Shown here piece by piece: positions 2,265 through 49,593 of a DNA stretch of 64,000 nucleotides. The DNA is from an uncultured Parcubacteria group bacterium (GTDB lineage Bacteria > Patescibacteriota > Patescibacteriia > UBA9934 > CAMTUG01): positions 276,206-340,205 of the forward strand of contig CAMTUG010000001.1 in assembly GCA_947084965.1 (NCBI GenBank). Reading direction: 5' to 3'. Every line of letters begins with the position of its first letter. Within the stretch, counting starts at the first letter, position 1. The notes below the pieces were generated by a model that was not told the DNA's origin, did no database searches, and worked only from the letters and a program-made list of their open reading frames with translations. A program made the position numbers and the translations under genes.

Positions 2265-2328
2265 CCCGCTAACCAGAAAAGCTCCCCATAAACATGAGAA
2301 GCTTTTCTGGTGCGCTGGGCGGGGATCG
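2265..2328. repeat. Direct repeat copy 2 (64 nt), overlapping the 3' end of the intact tRNA-Lys
   Basis: Perfect copy of 2091-2154, offset by 174 bp. It continues into the complete tRNA-Lys on the minus strand. Confidence 0.9.
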
Positions 2329-2382
2329 GACCCGCGACCTTGGGCTTAAAAGGCCCCTGCTCTACCACTGAGCTACCAGCGC
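2308..2382 (-). tRNA. tRNA-Lys (anticodon UUU), CCA encoded
   Basis: The reverse complement reads GCGCTGG-TA-GCTC-AGTGGTA-GAGC-A-GGGGC-CTTTTAA-GCCCA-AGGTC-GCGGG-TCCGATC-CCCGC-CCAGCGC-A-CCA. This folds as a cloverleaf with one A/G mismatch at the base of the anticodon stem. Confidence 0.85.
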
Positions 2383-2433: not shown

Positions 2434-3114
2434 ATGGGACTCAAGCATTTAGCAATGATCCTGGACGGCAACCGTCGGTGGGCAAAATCTAAGGGCTTAC
2501 CGACGCTCGAAGGCCATCGCCGCGGGTACGATAATGTGAAGACGATCGGGCTCGCTGCCCTCGAACGTGGGGTTGAGCAGTTCACTGTTTTTGCCTTTTC
2601 CACGGAAAACTGGAAGCGCTCCGAAGAGGAGGTTGGTTATTTGATGGATCTGTTGCACCACGCCCTCACGGCCGAAGTTGATTTTTACATGAAGCACAAC
2701 GTGCGCTTACGCGTGGTCGGTCGGCGCGAAGGATTGTCGGAAAAGATGATCACGGCGATTGGTGCGGCAGAGGCAAAGACGGCAGGGAACACGGCAGGAC
2801 AGATCAATTTGTGTATCAATTACGGCGGGCGGCCAGAGATCGTCGATGCGGTCAAGGCGCTCGTGGCCGACGGGGTTAAGCCAGAGGACGTGACCGAGGA
2901 TTTGCTCGCTTCGAAGATGTGGATGGCCGGGATCCCGGACCCTGATCTGATCGTGCGTACTTCGGGTGAACAGCGTCTGTCTGGGTTTCTCACGTGGTCA
3001 GGGGTGTACAGCGAACTATTATTTGTAGATAAACACTGGCCGGATTTTTCCGTTGAAGATTTAGATGCTGCGCTTGCCGAGTTTGATCAGCGTGGACGAA
3101 GGTTTGGCAAGTAA
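2434..3114 (+). CDS. uppS: Undecaprenyl-diphosphate synthase (cis-prenyltransferase)
   Basis: 226 aa with the 'ILDGNRRWAK' and 'RTSGEQRLSGFLTWS' motifs. Confidence 0.9.
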   Translation: MGLKHLAMILDGNRRWAKSKGLPTLEGHRRGYDNVKTIGLAALERGVEQFTVFAFSTENWKRSEEEVGYLMDLLHHALTAEVDFYMKHNVRLRVVGRREGLSEKMITAIGAAEAKTAGNTAGQINLCINYGGRPEIVDAVKALVADGVKPEDVTEDLLASKMWMAGIPDPDLIVRTSGEQRLSGFLTWSGVYSELLFVDKHWPDFSVEDLDAALAEFDQRGRRFGK

Positions 3115-3120
3115 GGGGAC

Positions 3121-3149
3121 TTGTCAGTGCCAGTTGCTTTTGATACGTT
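3121..3149 (+). promoter_or_regulatory. Sigma70-like promoter for the zinc-finger ORF
   Basis: TTGTCA (3121-3126), a 17-nt spacer, then TACGTT (3144-3149). AAAGGAG at 3161-3167 precedes ATG 3172. Confidence 0.45.
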
Positions 3150-3171
3150 CCTGCCGTCCCAAAGGAGTCCC

Positions 3172-3741
3172 ATGCCCCCTCGTTCTTCCGCCCCCGCCGG
3201 TCTCTCCTGCTCCTTCTGCACCAAGGCCGCCAACACCCCTGAGGTGAAGAAGGTCATCGCCGGCGTAAACGTCTACATCTGTGACGTCTGCGTCAAGGGG
3301 ATGGTCGCGCTCGTCGTTGTCCAACGTCCGGCTGACGCATCCTACCTCCTGCGTCGGCCCGAGCTCGATCTGCGCACCTTCACCATGACCGTCACGGGGT
3401 CGACGACGCTCGGTGACGTGCTCGGCTGGTACCTGCGTGTCTACCGTACGTTCCCTCACCTCCCCAAGGAGACCGGGACGGTCATCACGAGTGCTGCCTG
3501 CCGATTCTGCAGCCGGGTCGACCAGGTCGTGATCAGCCGCCTCGCGGCCAACATCTGCCTCGACTGCCTGCGGGACGTCGCCAAGATCCTGCTCAAGGAC
3601 GACCCTGCGCCGTCCTACCTGGTGCGTGATGCGGTGCTCGACTTGTGCCCGTTCGCCACCCTCCGCCTCGACGTGGATGAGCCGCACACCATCGGCGATG
3701 TTCTCAACGCCTACACGACCGCATCTCCGCCGCTGAACTGA
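3172..3741 (+). CDS. Two-module protein with tandem ClpX-type C4 zinc fingers (orphan, GC3-rich)
   Basis: The motifs 'CSFC...YICDVC' and 'CRFC...NICLDC' are each followed by a related module ('LDLRTFTMTV..TLGDVLGWY' and 'LDLCPFATLRL..TIGDVLNAY'). Hand counts give 42/60 G+C in the first 60 nt and 25/30 G/C at codon position 3. AAAGGAG lies upstream. The track start at 3121 falls inside the putative promoter, so ATG 3172 is preferred. Confidence 0.7.
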   Translation: MPPRSSAPAGLSCSFCTKAANTPEVKKVIAGVNVYICDVCVKGMVALVVVQRPADASYLLRRPELDLRTFTMTVTGSTTLGDVLGWYLRVYRTFPHLPKETGTVITSAACRFCSRVDQVVISRLAANICLDCLRDVAKILLKDDPAPSYLVRDAVLDLCPFATLRLDVDEPHTIGDVLNAYTTASPPLN

Positions 3742-3778
3742 TCTTCGGCAGCTCACCTCGGCCGCCGATCTATACGGA

Positions 3779-3860
3779 ACGCCGCTCGGAATACTCCCGG
3801 GCGGCGTCTGAACTTAATTGAATTTCAAACCGCGCTCGTCCAGGACGGAGAGCGCGGATT
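3779..3860. terminator. Two GC-rich hairpins between convergent genes
   Basis: The first hairpin is 'acgccgctcgg-aatact-cccgggcggcgt'. The second is 'ccgcgctc-gtccaggacgg-gagcgcgg', which is followed by TTT on the minus strand. Confidence 0.55.
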
Positions 3861-3863
3861 TGA

Positions 3864-5048
3864 TTACGGTCGTTCCTTGGGGCGGAGGAAGTAGAGGACG
3901 ATCGCGAGAATGACGAGCAGTCCGCCGGAAGCGAGCCAGACGTCAGCGATGTTCGCCGGCGTGTCCTCGCGGCCGGACATGTAGAAGGCGAGTGAGAAGA
4001 GGACGATCGCGGCGCCGATCTCTTCCATCAGCGACTGCAACGATCCGAACGTCGAGCGGTATTCGCTCGTAACGTGGTGGTTGGTGTAGCTGTCGAGGAG
4101 CGGTCGGAACGCCCCGCGGCCGACTTCGTGCACCACGCCCATCACGAGGACCAGTCCAAGCCCAGGAACTTGCCCGATGAGCGCCAGGCCAACCCCAGCG
4201 ACGACGAGGGCGATCATCACGGCTTTGGCTTCGGCCCCTGAAGCGATCTTCGCTTTGCGAATGATCATCCCGGCGATGAAGAGCGCCAGATAGAGCGGGC
4301 TCCAGATCAGTCCGAGCTGGCTGGTGGCCACAAACTGCTCGAAGTACTTCGGCCAGTAGTGGTTGAACGCCACGACCAGACCGCTCACCATCCCTACCGC
4401 CACGGCCCAGCGCAGCGCCGAGCTGTTGCGCAGGGCATTGACGCTCCGCTTGAGCGCCTCTTTCTCGCTGACCTTTTCGTGGGCCAGTACTTCGCCGTCG
4501 CCGTTCATGTAGCGGGTGACGACAAAGAGTCCGACGAGAGCAAAGAACGCACTAGCGATCCACGGCCACCGAAGGCCGAAGGTCGATCCGATCCACGAGC
4601 CAAAGATCGCCGCCGGTGCGGCCAGCAATCCTTTGACGATCGCGGCGTTGGCGAACGTCTGCCCCTTTTCGTTTTCGCGATTGTGCAACTTCAAGGCGTC
4701 GACGATCCAGGCCTGCTGAATCCCCGAGAGGAAGGTGAAGGCCAAACCGTTGACCACTTCGGCCGCCAGCGCCCACCAGACGTTCTCTGCCAGGAAGTAG
4801 ATCGCGTTGCCCAGAGCGAAGATCAGGAAGCCGATGCGCAAGGACCAGGCGCGGGAGCGGGCGTCGGCCCACATCCCGGTCGGGACTTCGAAGAGGATGA
4901 TCGCCACCCAGAACCAACCGTTGACCATCGAAACCTGGCTCAAGGTGAGCCCGATCGAGGTGAGGAACGGAACGTAGGTCGCCGTGGTGACCATGAACAT
5001 CAGGCCCAGGGCGGCGGAGAAGAGGATGTAGGCGCGGGAAGGGGACAT
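3864..5048 (-). CDS. MFS-type transporter (GC3-rich)
   Basis: 394 aa, hydrophobic, with roughly 12 TM segments of MFS type. 28/30 G/C at codon position 3 in the first 30 codons. GGAGG lies just upstream of the ATG. Confidence 0.8.
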   Translation of the reverse strand: MSPSRAYILFSAALGLMFMVTTATYVPFLTSIGLTLSQVSMVNGWFWVAIILFEVPTGMWADARSRAWSLRIGFLIFALGNAIYFLAENVWWALAAEVVNGLAFTFLSGIQQAWIVDALKLHNRENEKGQTFANAAIVKGLLAAPAAIFGSWIGSTFGLRWPWIASAFFALVGLFVVTRYMNGDGEVLAHEKVSEKEALKRSVNALRNSSALRWAVAVGMVSGLVVAFNHYWPKYFEQFVATSQLGLIWSPLYLALFIAGMIIRKAKIASGAEAKAVMIALVVAGVGLALIGQVPGLGLVLVMGVVHEVGRGAFRPLLDSYTNHHVTSEYRSTFGSLQSLMEEIGAAIVLFSLAFYMSGREDTPANIADVWLASGGLLVILAIVLYFLRPKERP

Positions 5049-5065: not shown

Positions 5066-5103
5066 AAAAAAAGAACACGACCCGGGATGATTCCCAGGTC
5101 GTG
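5066..5103 (-). promoter_or_regulatory. Intrinsic-terminator-like hairpin inside the 5' leader of the MFS gene (candidate attenuator or riboswitch expression platform)
   Basis: The minus strand reads 'cacgacctggg-aatcat-cccgggtcgtg' followed by 'ttcttttttt'. GGAGG and the ATG follow about 10 nt later. Confidence 0.4.
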
Positions 5104-5311
5104 CGAGGACTCATTATGCAAAAAATCATGCAATCAGTGCTCGACCACCTGAGAAATACAACGCTTTCGGCATATCGCAGCCGACGAACGCGCGTCCGGT
5201 AATGTGGAGAGACTGATAATTCATACTGTTTTTAGTAGACAGGACTTTGTGAGTGATGTCAAGTGACGGAGTCTATATAAAAGCCAGCGGTTACGGTAAA
5301 CTGTCCCCAGT

Positions 5312-6550: not shown

Positions 6551-8998
6551 ATGAACAAGGAAGTCCTGTTAAAAAATGAGCTCCCCTCAACGCCTCCTCC
6601 GGGGTACGGCGTGTTAGTGCTGAATCAACTGAAGTCGCCCCTGGTTTATATTTTGCTCGTCGCGGCTGGGTTGTCGGTTGCCGTTCATGAATATTTTGAT
6701 GCCGGCGTTATCTTATTCGCGGTTTTATTGAATACATCGTTAGGGTTTTTACAAGAGTTTAAGGCTTCGCGAGCGCTCGATGCCTTAAAAGCACTGGTGC
6801 AACCGGAAGCTCGGGTCAAGCGAGATGGTAAGATCGTCACGATCGCGGCGCGTGATGTGGTTGTGGGCGACACGCTCGTGCTTGAGACGGGGGATCGTGT
6901 CGCTGCAGATGCAAGAGTTTCCGTCGCGGTTGAATTACAGGTCAACGAATCAACGCTGACCGGAGAATCGATGCCGGTCACCAAAGTTTTTGATGGAAAG
7001 GAACAGGTCTTCATGGGCACAACGATTGTGGCCGGGCGCGGAGAAGCCGTGGTGACAGAGATCGGGATCAATACGCGCCTTGGACAGACGGCGGAGCTGG
7101 TTGCATCGATGGAAGAAGAAGATACACCGCTGCAAACGGAACTTGGGCGACTGTCACAGACGTTGTCGATCGCGGTTTTGGTGATCGGGCTCGTAGTGAT
7201 CGTGATCGGGGTGTCCAAAGGGGGCGAGGTGATCGAGATGGTTACGCTCGCCGCCGCCCTCGCCGTGGCTGCGATTCCCGAAGGACTGCTCGTCGGGCTG
7301 ACCGTTATTTTAGCGATCGGCATGCAGCGGATGCTCAAAGCCAAGGCATTGACGCGGCGTCTCGTCGCGGCTGAAACGCTGGGGAGCGTCTCTGTTATTT
7401 GTACAGATAAAACAGGAACGATCACTAAAGGCGAAATGGAAGTGACCGTAATCGAATCCGAGGATCGAAAAAAAGCGCTCAGGGTTGCCGCGCTCTGCAA
7501 CAACGCCGAACTTGAAGGGATGCAGGTGCGTGGAACGATGACGGAAATGGCCTTACTTACCGCAGCCATGCATGAAGGGTTGGTCAAGGAAGCGCTCGAG
7601 GCAGATTATCCGCGTCTGGATGAACGACCGTTTTCTTCGTCCGCTAAGTTTATGGCGACGCTGCATCGTCACGGGAGTCATAACATGATTCTGTTAAAAG
7701 GGGCTCCAGAGGTCGTTGCCAGTTTTTGTTCGAAGGGAGGAGAGATTGTGTCGCATCATGCCCCGAAGATGACAGAAAAAGGATTGCGGGTGATCGCTTT
7801 GGCGATGAAAGAGGTAGGACAGACAACAACCACGCTGCGGGATGAAGATCTGCACGGGTTGACCTGCGTAGGATTGATCGGGCTCAGCGACCCGATTCGT
7901 CCTGAAGCAGCGCAAACGATCAAAGAAGCCAAGGTCGCCGGGGTGCGCACGATTATCATTACCGGAGATCATCCAAGGACGGCCCAAACGATCGCTGAAC
8001 AGGCGGGGTTTGGTCCAGAGAATAAGCGCGTGATCACAGGTGAGGAACTGGACGCCCTTTCTGAATCTGATTTTGCGCGGCGTCTTTCTTCGATCGATAT
8101 TTATGCCCGTGTGTTGCCGGCGCACAAAGTTCGTATCGTTCAGGCATGGCGTCACGCCGGGGCGTCTGTGGCCATGATCGGAGATGGGGTCAACGATGCG
8201 CCTGCCCTCAAAGCCGCCGACATCGGTGTCGCTTTGGGCAGTGGGACAGAGGTGGCCAAGCAGACAGGGGATATGGTTTTGCTCGATAATAATCTGTCGA
8301 CGTTGGTTCATGCGATCGCTCAGGGCCGAGTCATTTTTGACAACATCCGTAAGGTCGTTGCGTATCTGCTGACAGATAGCTTTACGGAACTGCTCCTGAT
8401 CATCGCCACGTTTCTCATCGGATTGCCGATCCCGATCTTTCCGGCGCAGATTTTGTGGATCAACTTGGTGACCGATGGATTTCCACACATGGCCCTGACG
8501 ATTGAAAAACCTGAACGCGGAATCATGAACGAACCGCCGCGGCCACGCACCGAGCGCGTCATAAACAAAGAGATGCGGGTCATTATTTCGCTCGTCGGTC
8601 TCACCACGGTCGTTCTGCTTCTCGGTCTGTATATCTACCTTCTTTCCACAGAGATGCCGATCGAAAAGATCCGCACGGTCATCTTCACGGCCCTCGGATT
8701 AAACTCGCTTCTGTACGTTCTTTCGATCCGGACCTTCCGTTCATCGATGTTCACCTCAAATCCGTTACAAAATCCTTGGCTCGTCGCATCGATGTTCGTT
8801 GGATTCCTCTTTTTGCTCGCCCCACTCGTGATCCCATCGTTCCGTACTCTGTTCGGTTTTGTGCCGCTGACCTTCCTAGAATTCGGGGCATTAGTTATGC
8901 TAGCCTTAGGACGCCAGCTCTTAACAGAAGCGATCAAGTTTTACTACCATTATGGAAAACGAAAAGAATCCCGAACCGGCATGGCTCTTTCAGCGTAA
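6551..8998 (+). CDS. P-type cation-transporting ATPase (type II, Ca2+/cation-like)
   Basis: 'CTDKTGTIT' phosphorylation site, 'TGDHPRTA' and 'GDGVNDAPALK'. Multiple TM helices. ATG 6551 is preferred over the track start at 6536. Confidence 0.9.
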   Translation: MNKEVLLKNELPSTPPPGYGVLVLNQLKSPLVYILLVAAGLSVAVHEYFDAGVILFAVLLNTSLGFLQEFKASRALDALKALVQPEARVKRDGKIVTIAARDVVVGDTLVLETGDRVAADARVSVAVELQVNESTLTGESMPVTKVFDGKEQVFMGTTIVAGRGEAVVTEIGINTRLGQTAELVASMEEEDTPLQTELGRLSQTLSIAVLVIGLVVIVIGVSKGGEVIEMVTLAAALAVAAIPEGLLVGLTVILAIGMQRMLKAKALTRRLVAAETLGSVSVICTDKTGTITKGEMEVTVIESEDRKKALRVAALCNNAELEGMQVRGTMTEMALLTAAMHEGLVKEALEADYPRLDERPFSSSAKFMATLHRHGSHNMILLKGAPEVVASFCSKGGEIVSHHAPKMTEKGLRVIALAMKEVGQTTTTLRDEDLHGLTCVGLIGLSDPIRPEAAQTIKEAKVAGVRTIIITGDHPRTAQTIAEQAGFGPENKRVITGEELDALSESDFARRLSSIDIYARVLPAHKVRIVQAWRHAGASVAMIGDGVNDAPALKAADIGVALGSGTEVAKQTGDMVLLDNNLSTLVHAIAQGRVIFDNIRKVVAYLLTDSFTELLLIIATFLIGLPIPIFPAQILWINLVTDGFPHMALTIEKPERGIMNEPPRPRTERVINKEMRVIISLVGLTTVVLLLGLYIYLLSTEMPIEKIRTVIFTALGLNSLLYVLSIRTFRSSMFTSNPLQNPWLVASMFVGFLFLLAPLVIPSFRTLFGFVPLTFLEFGALVMLALGRQLLTEAIKFYYHYGKRKESRTGMALSA

Positions 8999-9638
8999 CG
9001 AACTTGATCTCCTGGAGCAGGATTTTCGTGCCGCCTGGGCGGATGCTCTTGGAGCGGAACGACCGTTGACCGAAGTCGAAGAAGAAGTCATGGCCGAAGT
9101 CGATCAAATAGATGGCGCAGCGCATGCTGATCTTGAAGTCCTGTTTGCTGAGGCGGGGGTGGAAGACGATCGCTGTCCGGTGCACGGTGCCGATTGCCAT
9201 GGGGGGGAGGGGGACGCTTCAATCGCCGAGATGTTGGATGCGACGATCACCCACGATCCTCTCTCGTCGCGAGCGTTTCAGTTGGAGCGCGCGGTAGCCG
9301 ATTGGTGTCGGACGGCGGCGGTCCCGCAACCGATGTATCGTGATCTCTTTCGTTTGCGAATCAATGCTCCGCTCTTTGCCGCGAAGATCGTCTTTGCTGC
9401 ACAGGAAGAAGCGGTAGGGGATGCTCTCTCTATTCGGGTGGCGATAAAAGAATTAGAGGTAGGGGTCGCTTATCTGCGCCGCGCGACCGATGCGTTGAAC
9501 GTCTTGATGCATGGTGAGGCGCTCTCGCAAGGGATCGGGAGTGAGTGGCTACGCGAAGCCGAGGCGTTGTTGGTGCAGGCGCAAGAAAGACAACAACGTC
9601 TGCAATGGTTCATTCGTTTTCGTGGCAATGCGTTATGA
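8952..9638 (+). CDS. Acidic hypothetical protein
   Basis: 228-aa ORF. It overlaps the 3' end of the ATPase gene by 47 nt. Its TGA overlaps the ATG of the next gene (ATGA at 9635-9638). I see no recognisable motif. Confidence 0.5.
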   Translation: MENEKNPEPAWLFQRNELDLLEQDFRAAWADALGAERPLTEVEEEVMAEVDQIDGAAHADLEVLFAEAGVEDDRCPVHGADCHGGEGDASIAEMLDATITHDPLSSRAFQLERAVADWCRTAAVPQPMYRDLFRLRINAPLFAAKIVFAAQEEAVGDALSIRVAIKELEVGVAYLRRATDALNVLMHGEALSQGIGSEWLREAEALLVQAQERQQRLQWFIRFRGNAL

Positions 9639-26035: not shown

Positions 26036-26329
26036 TCAGTGGTAGAGGATGGTCGGATCGTCCGAACCGTCCGTGCCGGTGGTGGCGACCCTCCAGGCTC
26101 GGAGGATGCGTTGTAGTACCTCGTCTGGTTCGGCGGCCTTCGGCGTGACCGGAGGGTTCGAGGGCGTCATCGCGGCGTATCGATGACCGCAGTCCTCGCA
26201 GACGTACTCCGTCGTTGGGCGATCCGCCCCGAAGTTCACGATCTCCACGAGCTGGGTGTTCCGTCGCGGGCACCAGTCGCAGTCGCCGGTACACAGAGGG
26301 TTGCTCTGAAGCAGGCGGGTCTTAGACAT
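26036..26329 (-). CDS. Zinc-ribbon protein with a Thr/Ser/Asp-rich C-terminus (orphan, GC3-rich)
   Basis: 97 aa. 'CTGDCDWC...CEDC' four-Cys ribbon and the C-terminus 'VATTGTDGSDDPTILYH'. 25/30 G/C at codon position 3. AGGAG lies 5 nt before the ATG. Confidence 0.65.
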   Translation of the reverse strand: MSKTRLLQSNPLCTGDCDWCPRRNTQLVEIVNFGADRPTTEYVCEDCGHRYAAMTPSNPPVTPKAAEPDEVLQRILRAWRVATTGTDGSDDPTILYH

Positions 26330-26349
26330 GAGGTCTCCTGGTTGAACTA

Positions 26350-26378
26350 GGAATATCAGTTTCGATTGAGGCCGTCAA
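26350..26378 (-). promoter_or_regulatory. Promoter for the zinc-ribbon ORF, embedded in the 3' end of the rimK-like gene
   Basis: The minus strand reads TTGACG, a 17-nt spacer, then TATTCC. Confidence 0.35.
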
Positions 26379-46627: not shown

Positions 46628-47005
46628 ATGGCACAGAACGCGGTTGCCCTTAGTGCGAAGTATTTTGTGGTCGATCTCATCGGTGGGATCGTCCTTTTTC
46701 CGGTCTGGTGGTACACGCGCGGATTGGTGAAAATGGGGAGCGGTGTGTTGGACTTTTGGACAGCGGAGCGCAGTTCGCTAGCGATCGGTGTTTGGATCAA
46801 GAACATCTTCACCCCCATGTACGGTACGCACGATATCGCTGGGCGATTGATCAGCTTTTTCATGCGCATCGTGCAGATCATCGGTCGAACGATTGTGCTC
46901 CTGATTTGGACCGTGCTCTTGCTCCTCTTTTTTGTGGCCTATCTCGTTTTTCCTGCCTTTGTCGCTCTGGAAGTAGTCTATCACCTTGTTGGATCGCTTT
47001 TATGA
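46628..47005 (+). CDS. Small membrane protein
   Basis: 125 aa with 3-4 hydrophobic helices. ATGA overlap with the ClpC-like gene. Confidence 0.55.
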   Translation: MAQNAVALSAKYFVVDLIGGIVLFPVWWYTRGLVKMGSGVLDFWTAERSSLAIGVWIKNIFTPMYGTHDIAGRLISFFMRIVQIIGRTIVLLIWTVLLLLFFVAYLVFPAFVALEVVYHLVGSLL

Positions 47006-49593
47006 AGGGACTTGTTGTAAACAGTAAGCCGTTCGCCTTCACGGAACGCGTCGATGAAGTATCTATCATGTTGAAGCACGCACGTGATGGGGTGCAGAAA
47101 CTGATCGATCTCGTTGTGTTAGCTGGTGTCGTGCTCCTTCTGGCAATTTTTGCTCTCGGTACATTCGTGCTTAGCGATCCGGCAGAGATGATTGAACTTC
47201 TCTTTTGGACGACCCCAAGCGCTTATCTGTTCTGCTTCTGGTCTGCCATCTTTTTGATTCTGTTCTTCATCTATCGTCGGCTTGAGGCACGCCGCGAACA
47301 CGCCGTTCTGCCGACGCTCGAGCCTGACGCCGCTGCAGCGCTCGCACCAACCGATCTTTCTCACGGCCACAATATTCGCCAGTTCATGGATGACGAGGCG
47401 GTCAAATCCGTTGAACAAGGATTTGAAACGGCGCATAAGTTCAAACATGGAAGCGTTGATGCCCTTCACCTGTTTATCGGATCGCTGACCACACGTGAGG
47501 CATCCATCGTCTTTGCGCGCCTCGGATTATCATTCGATACGATGCGTGATGCGGTTGTGCGTCGACTTGCTTCCTTGCCCGCGGCGGGTGGAACGACTCT
47601 CGGTGACAACGCGCAGAAGATTTTGGCGCAGGCCATGAAGTCCGCTATCGTCCATCGACGCCGTCACATTACCCCGGTTGAGCTGATGATCGCTGCGTAT
47701 GACGCAGACGAATTTTTACAGGAGTTATTGTACAGTAAAAAAATTGAACGCCAGGATTTCGAAAACGTCTTGCAGTGGATTCGCATCAACGACGAACAGC
47801 GCCGCCGGATCAAAGAGTTTTCTCGGGCCGCGTCCCTCAAGCCAAAGGGGCCGGTCAACCGTGCCTACACGTCGGTGGCGACACCGTTTCTTGATTCTGT
47901 TTCGGACGACCTGACGCGTGCCGCGGCTTGGGGGCAGTTGCCAATGCTGGTTGGACGCGCTCAGGAATTGACCTCTGTGTTTCGGGCGATCGAAGGGGGG
48001 AATCAGAGCGTTGTTTTGGTTGGGCTACCAGGAGTGGGAAAGGACGCGTTGATTTCGGGGATCGCCGAAGCGATGGTTGAAGAGCGCGTGCCAGAGATTT
48101 TACAAGACAAGCGCTTAGTGAAAATTTCTCTGCCACACATTATTGCCGGATCAAGCGGTACGCAGGCTGAGGCTAAGCTTCTGCAAGCTCTGCGCGAAAT
48201 TGCGATTTCTGGAAACATCGTTACGGTCATCACCGACATCGACCAGATGATCGGGCAGGGGCTCGATCTTTCGGCAATTTTGTCGCAAGAGCTGGATCGT
48301 CGCTACACGTTTGTGATCGCTACCACAACGCCGGAAGGGTATGCCAGCAAGGTGGAGCGCTCGGTGCTCGGACAGAAGCTGATTAAAATTGACGTTCAAG
48401 AGCCGAAGCAAAACGAAGCCATTCATATCCTTGAAGCCAAGATCGGATCGATTGAATATAAGCACAACGTCGTCTTTACGTATGAAGCGGTCAGCCGTGT
48501 CGTTTCCTTAACCGATCGCTACATGCACGATCGTCAGTTGCCAGAAAAGGCGATCGAAGTGGCTCAAGAAGTTGCCCTCGAGGTGCATAAAAAGAAGGGC
48601 GACGGAGCGCGGGTGGTTGGGGAAGATGTTGCCGCGATCATCAGCGAAAAAACGCGTGTGCCGGTGACCGAAGTCGCCAGCGAGGAAAAAGAGAAGTTGC
48701 TGCACTTGGAAGAGCGGATGCACGGCCGTGTCGTTGGTCAAGACGAGGCGGTCAAAGCGATTGCGGCGGCGTTGCGTCGCGCCCGTGCGGACTTGCGTTC
48801 CCAAGATCGTCCGATCGCCAACTTTTTGTTTCTTGGGCCAACCGGGGTCGGAAAAACGGAGCTGGCCAAAACGGTCAGTGAAGTGTACTTCGGCAGCGAA
48901 GGGGCGATGCTTCGCTTTGATATGTCGGAATATCAGGAGCAGGGGAGCATTAATCGTCTGATCGGTGCGGCCGGGCAAGGGGGGTTGATTACTGAAGCGG
49001 TGCGTAAAGCTCCGTTCTCTTTATTGCTCCTCGATGAACTTGAGAAGGCGCATCCAGATATTTTGAACCTCTTCCTGCAAGTGATGGATGACGGCCGTTT
49101 GACCGACGGCGCGGGTCGCACGATCGACTTTACCAACGTTATTTTGATCGCCACGTCAAACGCCGGGGCGCAGTATCTGCAGCAGGCGGTCCGTCAGAAC
49201 ATTCCAATGGAGCAGATCAAGGAGAACCTGATCGAAAACGAACTCAAGGGCATTTATCGTCCAGAGTTTTTGAACCGCTTCGATGGAATTATCGTTTTCA
49301 AGCCGCTTGGGATGGAAGAGGTTGTGCAGATCGCTTATCTCATGATTTCTAAAGTTACGGAACGATTGAAGGCGAAGGGGATTACGTTCCGCGCCAGCGA
49401 CGAAGCGGTGTACGAATTGGCGCAAAAAGGATTTGATCCAAAGTTTGGTGCGCGTCCGTTGCGCCGAGTGATTCAGGAAGAGGTCGACAACGCCGTGGCG
49501 ACCGTCCTTTTGAAAGGGGAAGTGGGACGTCGCGATACGCTGGTGCTTGAAGCAGGGGGCAAGATTCACGTCGAAAAGGCGGCCGAGCTGTAG
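47002..49593 (+). CDS. ClpC/ClpB-like AAA+ chaperone with an N-terminal membrane anchor
   Basis: TM helices at about residues 35-95. Clp_N-like 'VDALHLFIGSLTTREASIVFARLGL'. D1 has an atypical P-loop, 'GLPGVGKD'. D2 has the canonical 'GPTGVGKTELAK' and 'GARPLRR'. The start is taken at ATG 47002. Confidence 0.8.
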   Translation: MKGLVVNSKPFAFTERVDEVSIMLKHARDGVQKLIDLVVLAGVVLLLAIFALGTFVLSDPAEMIELLFWTTPSAYLFCFWSAIFLILFFIYRRLEARREHAVLPTLEPDAAAALAPTDLSHGHNIRQFMDDEAVKSVEQGFETAHKFKHGSVDALHLFIGSLTTREASIVFARLGLSFDTMRDAVVRRLASLPAAGGTTLGDNAQKILAQAMKSAIVHRRRHITPVELMIAAYDADEFLQELLYSKKIERQDFENVLQWIRINDEQRRRIKEFSRAASLKPKGPVNRAYTSVATPFLDSVSDDLTRAAAWGQLPMLVGRAQELTSVFRAIEGGNQSVVLVGLPGVGKDALISGIAEAMVEERVPEILQDKRLVKISLPHIIAGSSGTQAEAKLLQALREIAISGNIVTVITDIDQMIGQGLDLSAILSQELDRRYTFVIATTTPEGYASKVERSVLGQKLIKIDVQEPKQNEAIHILEAKIGSIEYKHNVVFTYEAVSRVVSLTDRYMHDRQLPEKAIEVAQEVALEVHKKKGDGARVVGEDVAAIISEKTRVPVTEVASEEKEKLLHLEERMHGRVVGQDEAVKAIAAALRRARADLRSQDRPIANFLFLGPTGVGKTELAKTVSEVYFGSEGAMLRFDMSEYQEQGSINRLIGAAGQGGLITEAVRKAPFSLLLLDELEKAHPDILNLFLQVMDDGRLTDGAGRTIDFTNVILIATSNAGAQYLQQAVRQNIPMEQIKENLIENELKGIYRPEFLNRFDGIIVFKPLGMEEVVQIAYLMISKVTERLKAKGITFRASDEAVYELAQKGFDPKFGARPLRRVIQEEVDNAVATVLLKGEVGRRDTLVLEAGGKIHVEKAAEL

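Follow-up and report, generated by a model that had tools for sequence, protein, structure and literature searches.

A lineage-specific patescibacterial protein with two tandem ClpX-type zinc fingers and no ATPase domain

A 64,000-nucleotide stretch of DNA from an uncultured, Uhrbacteria-like Parcubacteria group bacterium (GenBank assembly GCA_947084965.1, contig CAMTUG010000001.1, positions 276,206 to 340,205), here called the window, carries at positions 3172-3741 a gene whose 189-residue product consists of two tandem units, each a four-cysteine (C4) finger resembling the N-terminal zinc-binding domain (ZBD) of the unfoldase ClpX followed by a module of about 45 residues, and which has no ATPase domain. 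The gene is real and lineage-specific, and its product is a small soluble zinc protein, zinc binding itself being predicted from the sequence. Because the first finger has about 50% identity with a genuine ClpX ZBD, we rank first the reading that the protein may imitate the dimer of ClpX N-domains within a single chain, as a decoy or mimic, a tentative reading to which we assign a probability of roughly 0.3. The features of the gene, in window coordinates, are as follows.

3161-3167, plus strand: Shine-Dalgarno-like AAAGGAG, 4 nt 5' of the ATG at 3172, read from the sequence.
3172-3741, plus strand: coding sequence of the tandem ZBD protein, 189 amino acids (aa), 20.5 kDa, pI 8.1, with a TGA stop at 3739-3741.
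3202-3321 (aa 11-50), plus strand: ZBD 1, C13-x2-C16-x20-C37-x2-C40 and a C-terminal helix, of near-canonical ClpX type.
3322-3456 (aa 51-95), plus strand: module 1, with helix 54-61, an ill-defined stretch (possibly a strand) and helix 80-93 containing TLGDVLGWY, according to AlphaFold2 (AF2) secondary structure; aligns to module 2.
3457-3492 (aa 96-107), plus strand: inter-unit linker HLPKETGTVITS, lying between the aligned units and modelled with low confidence.
3493-3600 (aa 108-143), plus strand: ZBD 2, C110-x2-C113-x15-C129-x2-C132 and an amphipathic helix, diverged.
3601-3726 (aa 144-185), plus strand: module 2, SYLVRDAVLDL, then ATLRLDV, then HTIGDVLNAY; aligns to module 1.

The first finger is readily recognised by profile, pairwise and structural comparison. 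Residues 12-42 match the Pfam family zf-C4_ClpX (PF06689) with 36.6 bits against a gathering score of 27 (E 4.3e-9), and the finger matches the solved E. coli ClpX zinc-binding domains with E values of 1e-5 to 5e-5, displaying 46-53% identity across 38-41 residues and a 2-aa insertion relative to the E. coli domain. A model of unit 1 (aa 1-100), for which AF2 was given a 17-row alignment with unit 2, stand-alone ZBD proteins and the protein P0133, can be superposed on crystal structures of the E. coli ClpX ZBD at 1.2-1.7 Å, that of the SspB-tail complex (2DS8) included. Its predicted local distance difference test score (pLDDT) is 82-87 in the finger, about 79 in helix 80-93 and under 50 across residues 59-73; nothing beyond the finger and a single helix is resolved. 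To judge from sequence and model together, finger 1 is a bona fide ClpX zinc-binding domain, a treble clef with a C-terminal helix. This helix is unusually hydrophobic, reading GMVALVVVQ where E. coli ClpX has LCNDIIREE.

The second finger is more diverged. The cysteines of the protein lie at positions 13, 16, 37 and 40 and at 110, 113, 129 and 132, with one extra at 159, so that the spacer between cysteine pairs is 20 residues in finger 1 and 15 in finger 2, compared to 18 in E. coli; the first loop of finger 2 is shortened by a 3-aa deletion. Pfam does not detect finger 2 when the second half of the protein is searched alone. An ad hoc profile, for which 342 ZBD segments were taken from database matches, scores it at 15.3 bits, whereas the best of 2000 shuffles of the second half of the protein reaches 7.8 bits. 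We regard finger 2 as a diverged ZBD that has kept all four cysteines. The hydrophobic pocket of the ZBD dimer is lined by Phe16 and Ile46 in ClpX (PMC7804408). In finger 1 these positions are taken by F15 and L47, according to the alignment with the E. coli domain, and in finger 2 by F112 and I139, according to our mapping via the unit-unit and profile alignments.

Each finger is part of a larger repeat. The two halves of the protein align across 79 residues with 32% identity (E 9e-9), the alignment spanning finger and module, and both units contain the motifs SYL(L/V)R, LDL and T(L/I)GDVL..Y. At the DNA level no similarity remains between the halves. The two units of C4 finger and module of about 45 residues evidently derive from an internal duplication, which with 32% protein identity and vanished DNA similarity is ancient. 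Retention of the eight cysteine ligands and of T(L/I)GDVL..Y in the face of such divergence argues for long-term selection on the protein.

What the protein lacks is equally clear. It contains no Walker A motif and hence no AAA+ module, and two ClpX equivalog models align to the finger alone, NF003745 with 35.6 bits (cut-off 359) and TIGR00382 with 27.9 bits (cut-off 371). Searches of Pfam, NCBIfam, PADLOC and PHROGs detected no enzymatic or DNA-binding domain. The first-pass annotation, made without database searches, had described the open reading frame (ORF) and quoted four peptides from it, all of which are present as described. Its view of the protein as an internal duplication of a ClpX-like finger and a module, with a diverged second finger and no AAA+ domain, is borne out by the profile match, the ad hoc profile score, the repeat alignment and the equivalog scores given above.

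The modules have no significant family or PDB match and are predicted to comprise a helix, a possible strand and a second helix. Two candidate origins were considered. The strand and T-[ILV]-G-D-x-L helix of the module resemble the beta2-alpha1 segment of SAMP1, a member of the ThiS/MoaD/SAMP beta-grasp group, with sub-threshold E values over 27-31 residues, 0.13 for module 2 as a single sequence and 0.042 for a three-sequence module profile. Module 1 matches TUG-UBL1 weakly (E 0.2), and the top eight module matches further include the Ubl 5zmb (E 1.6) and the MoaD-type molybdopterin converting factor 2m19 (E 3.5), both weak. However, a complete beta-grasp has about 70-90 aa and usually a C-terminal Gly-Gly, whereas the module has about 45 aa, the protein ends in ...SPPLN, and the model neither shows that fold nor matched it in structural comparison; we keep the beta-grasp as a lead only. 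The other candidate, prompted by a likeness in MAFFT and phmmer alignments, was that the module is left over from the linker of ClpX and its first AAA+ helix (PTPxEIxxxLDxYVIGQ..AK..L). When 14 ClpX fragments were made into a profile, it scored -2.3 bits on module 1, a value reached by 326 of 1000 shuffles, and 4.1 bits on module 2 in a different register; the alignments of full ClpX models stop at the finger, short of the module. We reject this origin. Nor did a homologue of the whole unit emerge: the 152-aa P0133 was considered as one sharing finger and module, with a module-only E value of 0.001 in pairwise comparison and 0.018 among 133 sequences. The relatives of P0133 do not have its module, and its likeness, suggestive at best, is not used as evidence here.

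Downstream, the gene faces a convergent transporter gene of the major facilitator superfamily (MFS), with structured RNA between the two.

3775-3810 and 3825-3863, no strand assigned: two stable GC-rich hairpins in the intergenic region between the ZBD and MFS genes, with AUUUGAUU, U-rich, after the second.
3864-5048, minus strand: MFS transporter gene, 394 aa, convergent to the ZBD gene; Pfam MFS_1 88.7 bits; third-codon-position GC content (GC3) 0.84.

That 3172-3741 is a real gene follows from the Pfam match above threshold, the pattern of GC content over codon positions, the Shine-Dalgarno sequence and the stable 3' hairpins. In the plus-strand frame, GC1/2/3 are 0.62/0.48/0.84, the order GC3>GC1>GC2 being that of a real GC-rich gene. 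The frame has no frameshifts and no internal stops, and the gene callers of two sources also picked the ATG at 3172 as start. Long shadow ORFs are common in GC-rich DNA, and one of 210 aa lies on the opposite strand at 3124-3756, which could be taken to mean that the ZBD reading frame is a chance product of a GC-rich stretch or the wrong frame. That explanation is effectively refuted: the antisense ORF has GC1/2/3 of 0.81/0.49/0.62 and no Pfam family match, and it is the plus frame alone that shows the GC3>GC1>GC2 order, in addition to passing the Pfam threshold and carrying the internal repeat. The plus frame is correct and the antisense ORF is its shadow. The first-pass annotation had singled out a missing ClpX-ZBD profile match and a better-supported frame as the two findings that would speak against it; the match is significant, and there is no better frame.

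The RNA of 3742-3870 folds with -60.8 kcal/mol (z = -5.6), and none of 200 shuffles was as stable. A consensus terminator scan did not call the hairpins at 3775-3863, which are nonetheless probable terminators between the convergent ZBD and MFS genes. A scan for the sigma-70-type consensus, to which other promoter types are invisible, found nothing promoter-like in the 57 nt that separate the ZBD gene from uppS upstream; its sole match, 2995-3022, falls within uppS. No RNA family was found at the locus with Rfam. An identical 5.8-kb stretch is present in a separate assembly record (Logan, ERR3478686), the same reads possibly lying behind both.

The gene is a singleton, as its description as an orphan in the first-pass annotation implied. 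We found no full-length relative among 5.8 billion 90% clusters, among 1.84 billion representatives scanned exhaustively with HMMER, or in scans of genome, metagenome and viral contigs, and PADLOC returned no match for the protein. A six-frame search of the ORFs at 85 related loci turned up no ZBD, which identifies the gene as a lineage-specific insertion.

Multiple ClpX-type fingers on one chain are by contrast common. Of the 133 other proteins matched at E <= 0.001 in the exhaustive search, 118 are small proteins with 2-4 such fingers. Only two of these 133 best ZBD matches have a Walker A motif, and their median length is 149 aa. Database matches show the fingers fused elsewhere to HTH_17, MerR or sigma-like helix-turn-helix (HTH) regions, or to signal peptides resembling those of the twin-arginine translocation (Tat) pathway, and ZBDs are also present on cyanobacterial sigma factors (PMC11119718). 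A literature search found no paper that says what any ClpX-type ZBD protein of the stand-alone kind does. Among the matches is a two-finger subfamily (P0093, P0137, P0150, P0156, P0146 and P0057) whose members begin with a twin-arginine-like signal (e.g. MSISRRRFLTL...) and have a first finger of variant sequence, CSFCGK..FGLAG..RICDEC; if these signals function as their sequences suggest, ClpX-type fingers would be exported in this subfamily, which would be unexpected.

As a single-chain mimic, the protein would function through pairing of its two ZBDs, within or between chains, in the manner of the N-domains of ClpX and CsfB. Such pairing would create a hydrophobic side pocket able to bind partner proteins by short peptide motifs. 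Acting as a binder without catalytic activity, the protein would occupy or sequester ligands of the ClpX N-domain, such as adaptor tails and degrons, and this sequestration would shift which proteins get degraded; the modules might give stability or provide a second binding surface. The analogy draws on well-described systems. The ClpX N-domain is a dimer, the hexamer bears a constitutive trimer of such dimers, and SspB, RssB, trigger factor and lambda O bind the hydrophobic region of the ZBD dimer (PMC7804408). The only treble-clef fingers reported to dimerise are the ClpX N-domain and CsfB, which do so via C-terminal helices and hairpins; CsfB is a stand-alone treble-clef protein whose dimer inhibits sigma factors and whose structure is nearest that of the ClpX N-domain, at about 20% identity (PMC5890618). 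Given this dimerisation precedent, two copies in one chain fit a pseudo-dimer. In favour of the mimic, the pocket residues are kept in both fingers, and finger 1 is closer to ClpX than CsfB is.

Several observations weigh against the mimic. We infer the pairing of the two ZBDs, and the full-length AF2 model, computed from the single sequence, is unusable at a pLDDT of 45. According to our mapping from the alignments, finger 2 is without the canonical Y34 and IAG motif. The fusion of ZBDs to HTH, MerR and sigma-factor domains indicates that the domain is not tied to ClpXP docking, and the authors of the CsfB study warn that a fold likeness to the ClpX N-domain need not mean the same partners or function (PMC5890618). 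The window contains no ClpX, ClpP or SspB gene, its only Clp-family gene being a ClpB/ClpA-like ATPase at 46708-49593 (plus strand), 43 kb from the ZBD gene. As a singleton, the gene offers no conserved neighbourhood or co-occurrence, and it is domain identity alone that makes a role as adaptor, adaptor mimic or anti-adaptor, the three suggested in the first-pass annotation, plausible. The broader proposition, that a mimic acting as decoy or anti-adaptor reprogrammes regulated proteolysis in a reduced-genome bacterium of the candidate phyla radiation (CPR) and exemplifies a large class of ATPase-less tandem-ZBD proteins, is graded as doubtful.

The same paired fingers could instead control a sigma factor or transcription protein independently of ClpX, as a CsfB/Gin-type regulator that is possibly zinc- or redox-dependent. 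The precedent is CsfB, a stand-alone dimeric treble-clef anti-sigma factor and the nearest structural neighbour of the ClpX N-domain (PMC5890618), and the frequent fusion of stand-alone ZBDs to HTH_17, MerR and sigma-like HTH regions, along with their presence on cyanobacterial sigma factors (PMC11119718), points the same way. The Gin profile (PF10764) does match the protein, if weakly (E 0.003). However, its 17.8 bits fall under the cut-off of 27, whereas zf-C4_ClpX passes its own; the sequence of finger 1 is far nearer to ClpX than to CsfB; and the adjoining genes are uppS and the MFS gene, with no sigma or anti-sigma gene next to the locus. We consider such a regulator possible, on the improbable side. 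An adaptor that docks on ClpX is quite unlikely. In this scheme a finger would heterodimerise with the ClpX N-domain, or the protein would bind ClpX via the ZBD pocket, while the modules carry cargo and substrates are delivered. ZBDs do dimerise via helices and hairpins (PMC5890618), the very hydrophobic C-terminal helix of finger 1 is what one would expect of a buried interface, and the conserved motif of the repeated modules could be a cargo site; but the ZBD dimers of ClpX are described as constitutive in the hexamer (PMC7804408), leaving little room for exchange, and the modules contain nothing recognisable as a cargo-binding domain.

The gene might also be a functionless passenger, a recent GC-rich foreign arrival that is neither expressed nor of use in this host and whose features reflect selection in an unsampled donor. 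Its singleton status in all searches fits this, as do a GC3 more than 5 standard deviations (SD) over that of host genes, the missing sigma-70-type site in the 57-nt gap and the variability of the uppS-MFS slot in relatives, where it holds a tRNA-Asp in some, is empty in one and has a Y1 transposase nearby in another. The intact ORF, the Shine-Dalgarno sequence, the full set of eight zinc ligands and the terminator-like hairpins argue the other way, and we judge a passenger unlikely.

The gene's surroundings are recognisable as a cell-wall synthesis cluster: ftsW, murG, tRNA-Lys and uppS lie on one side of it, and the MFS gene, a GT4 glycosyltransferase gene and a P-type ATPase gene on the other, with murD and murE farther downstream. 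The ZBD and MFS genes form an island of about 2 kb, which the first-pass annotation had noticed from their convergent orientation and shared GC3 richness. Measurement agrees: both have a GC3 of 0.84, compared to 0.58 +/- 0.05 (maximum 0.67) in the 50 other ORFs of the window, which makes them the only two of 52 ORFs with GC3 above 0.75 and puts them more than 5 SD off. No direct or inverted repeats bound the island (3172-5048).

The MFS gene itself is not foreign cargo of the usual sort. Its homologues are found in Candidatus Uhrbacteria and other Patescibacteria, it occupies the same syntenic slot in Uhrbacteria relatives (GT4-MFS-uppS-murG-ftsW), and in relatives too its GC3 exceeds that of its neighbours. 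Since the transporter gene is syntenic, the ZBD gene alone is the lineage-specific extra. The position between MFS and uppS varies: it is a 110-bp spacer in locus L002 (7183-7291) and holds a tRNA-Asp(gtc) in L007 (7371-7446) and L004 (2581-2656), while beside the MFS gene of L005 (5744-7476) there are a doubtful 303-aa ORF and a Y1-transposase-like gene, uppS being uncalled there. The uppS side of the MFS gene may be a local insertion hotspot in Uhrbacteria. The simplest reading, which we infer from these data, is that a segment of about 2 kb comprising this MFS allele and the ZBD gene was acquired from a GC-richer, unsampled relative and replaced what stood at the homologous site.

Several other features of the region deserve mention. 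Just upstream of the MFS gene in the closest named relative (L007 5039-5710 and L004 249-920, both plus strand) lies a 223-aa ORF with a GC3 of 0.89, a signal-peptide-like N terminus and no Pfam match, a second GC-rich orphan beside the same transporter gene. In the window, the MFS gene is preceded on its own strand by a 13-bp GC-rich hairpin followed by a U run (5075-5104, minus strand), about 20 nt upstream of the Shine-Dalgarno sequence and start, and ahead of that hairpin by a 32-codon ORF (MNYQSLHITGRAFVGCDMPKALYFSGGRALIA; 5126-5224, minus strand). Hairpin and short ORF have no Rfam match and may be a leader or attenuator. The interval between murG and tRNA-Lys contains a perfect 64-nt direct repeat, its copies (2091-2154 and 2265-2328) set 174 nt apart. 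The second copy takes in a hairpin and, from the 3' end of tRNA-Lys(ttt) (2308-2382, minus strand), the last 21 nt. The repeat has the appearance of a tRNA end that was copied, whether att-like or by tandem duplication.

Farther away, the ClpB/ClpA-like gene at 46708-49593 encodes a 961-aa double-AAA+ Clp/Hsp100 protein with AAA_2, ClpB_D2-small and AAA_lid_9 domains, which scores far under the ClpB and ClpA equivalog cut-offs and in which about 230 N-terminal residues precede the ClpA-like alignment. A 112-aa ORF at 26039-26374 (minus strand) displays a C-x2-C...C-x2-C zinc-ribbon pattern with only weak DUF7685/Zn_ribbon_8 matches and is unrelated to the ClpX-type fingers. At 8952-9638 (plus strand), a 228-aa acidic ORF without a Pfam or NCBIfam match shares 47 nt with the end of the P-type ATPase gene.

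The ClpX N-domain is a docking platform for adaptors and several substrates, and a free-standing copy of it could in principle titrate adaptor or substrate ligands. Were this true of tandem ZBD proteins generally, it would amount to a new and apparently common way of tuning regulated proteolysis, and the single-chain mimic would be part of a widespread, unrecognised layer of control over substrate choice by ClpX; the CsfB precedent means that the same dimeric finger may control transcription instead. The gene described here is a singleton from a metagenome-assembled genome and would not change the field alone. What it offers directly is a pointer to the class of ATPase-less tandem-ZBD proteins, which would be of more interest if a function were demonstrated, and a clean case of a recent, compositionally foreign insertion in a CPR cell-wall cluster.

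Comparison with known systems places the protein near several of them. With the N-terminal ZBD of ClpX (PF06689; 1OVX, 2DS5-2DS8) it shares the C4 treble-clef finger and C-terminal helix. Unlike ClpX, it has no AAA+ unfoldase, carries two fingers per chain about 96 residues apart, and follows each finger with a module that has no ClpX counterpart. CsfB/Gin, the Bacillus anti-sigma-F/G/E factor (PF10764; 5N7Y), differs from it in that each chain bears a single finger and lacks a repeated module. Searches of Pfam and NCBIfam revealed no sequence likeness to ClpXP adaptors and anti-adaptors such as SspB, RssB and IraM. Stand-alone ZBDs of phages (PHROG 6797) are likewise ATPase-less ClpX-type fingers and match the protein over aa 6-43, the finger only, with an E value of 1.7e-9; the 65-aa 'Clp protease' of Pseudomonas phage PP9W2 was found by Foldseek with a probability of 0.99 and 36% identity. 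These phage proteins, each with just one finger, are far shorter than the protein described here, and viral contig and PADLOC searches gave no sign of viral origin for the locus.

The closest likeness in overall design is to small stand-alone multi-ZBD proteins from metagenomes (such as P0036, P0124, P0028, P0044 and P0102), which have 100-250 aa, 2-4 fingers and likewise no ATPase; P0024 and P0025 have four ZBDs each. P0036, P0124 and P0028 are also duplications of a unit of ZBD and module, with a finger spacing of 105-124 residues compared to 96 here. The modules of proteins of this type are unrelated to those of the present protein, and the fingers alone align. The architecture of finger and module in duplicate is not unique; what is new here is the module and the singleton gene.

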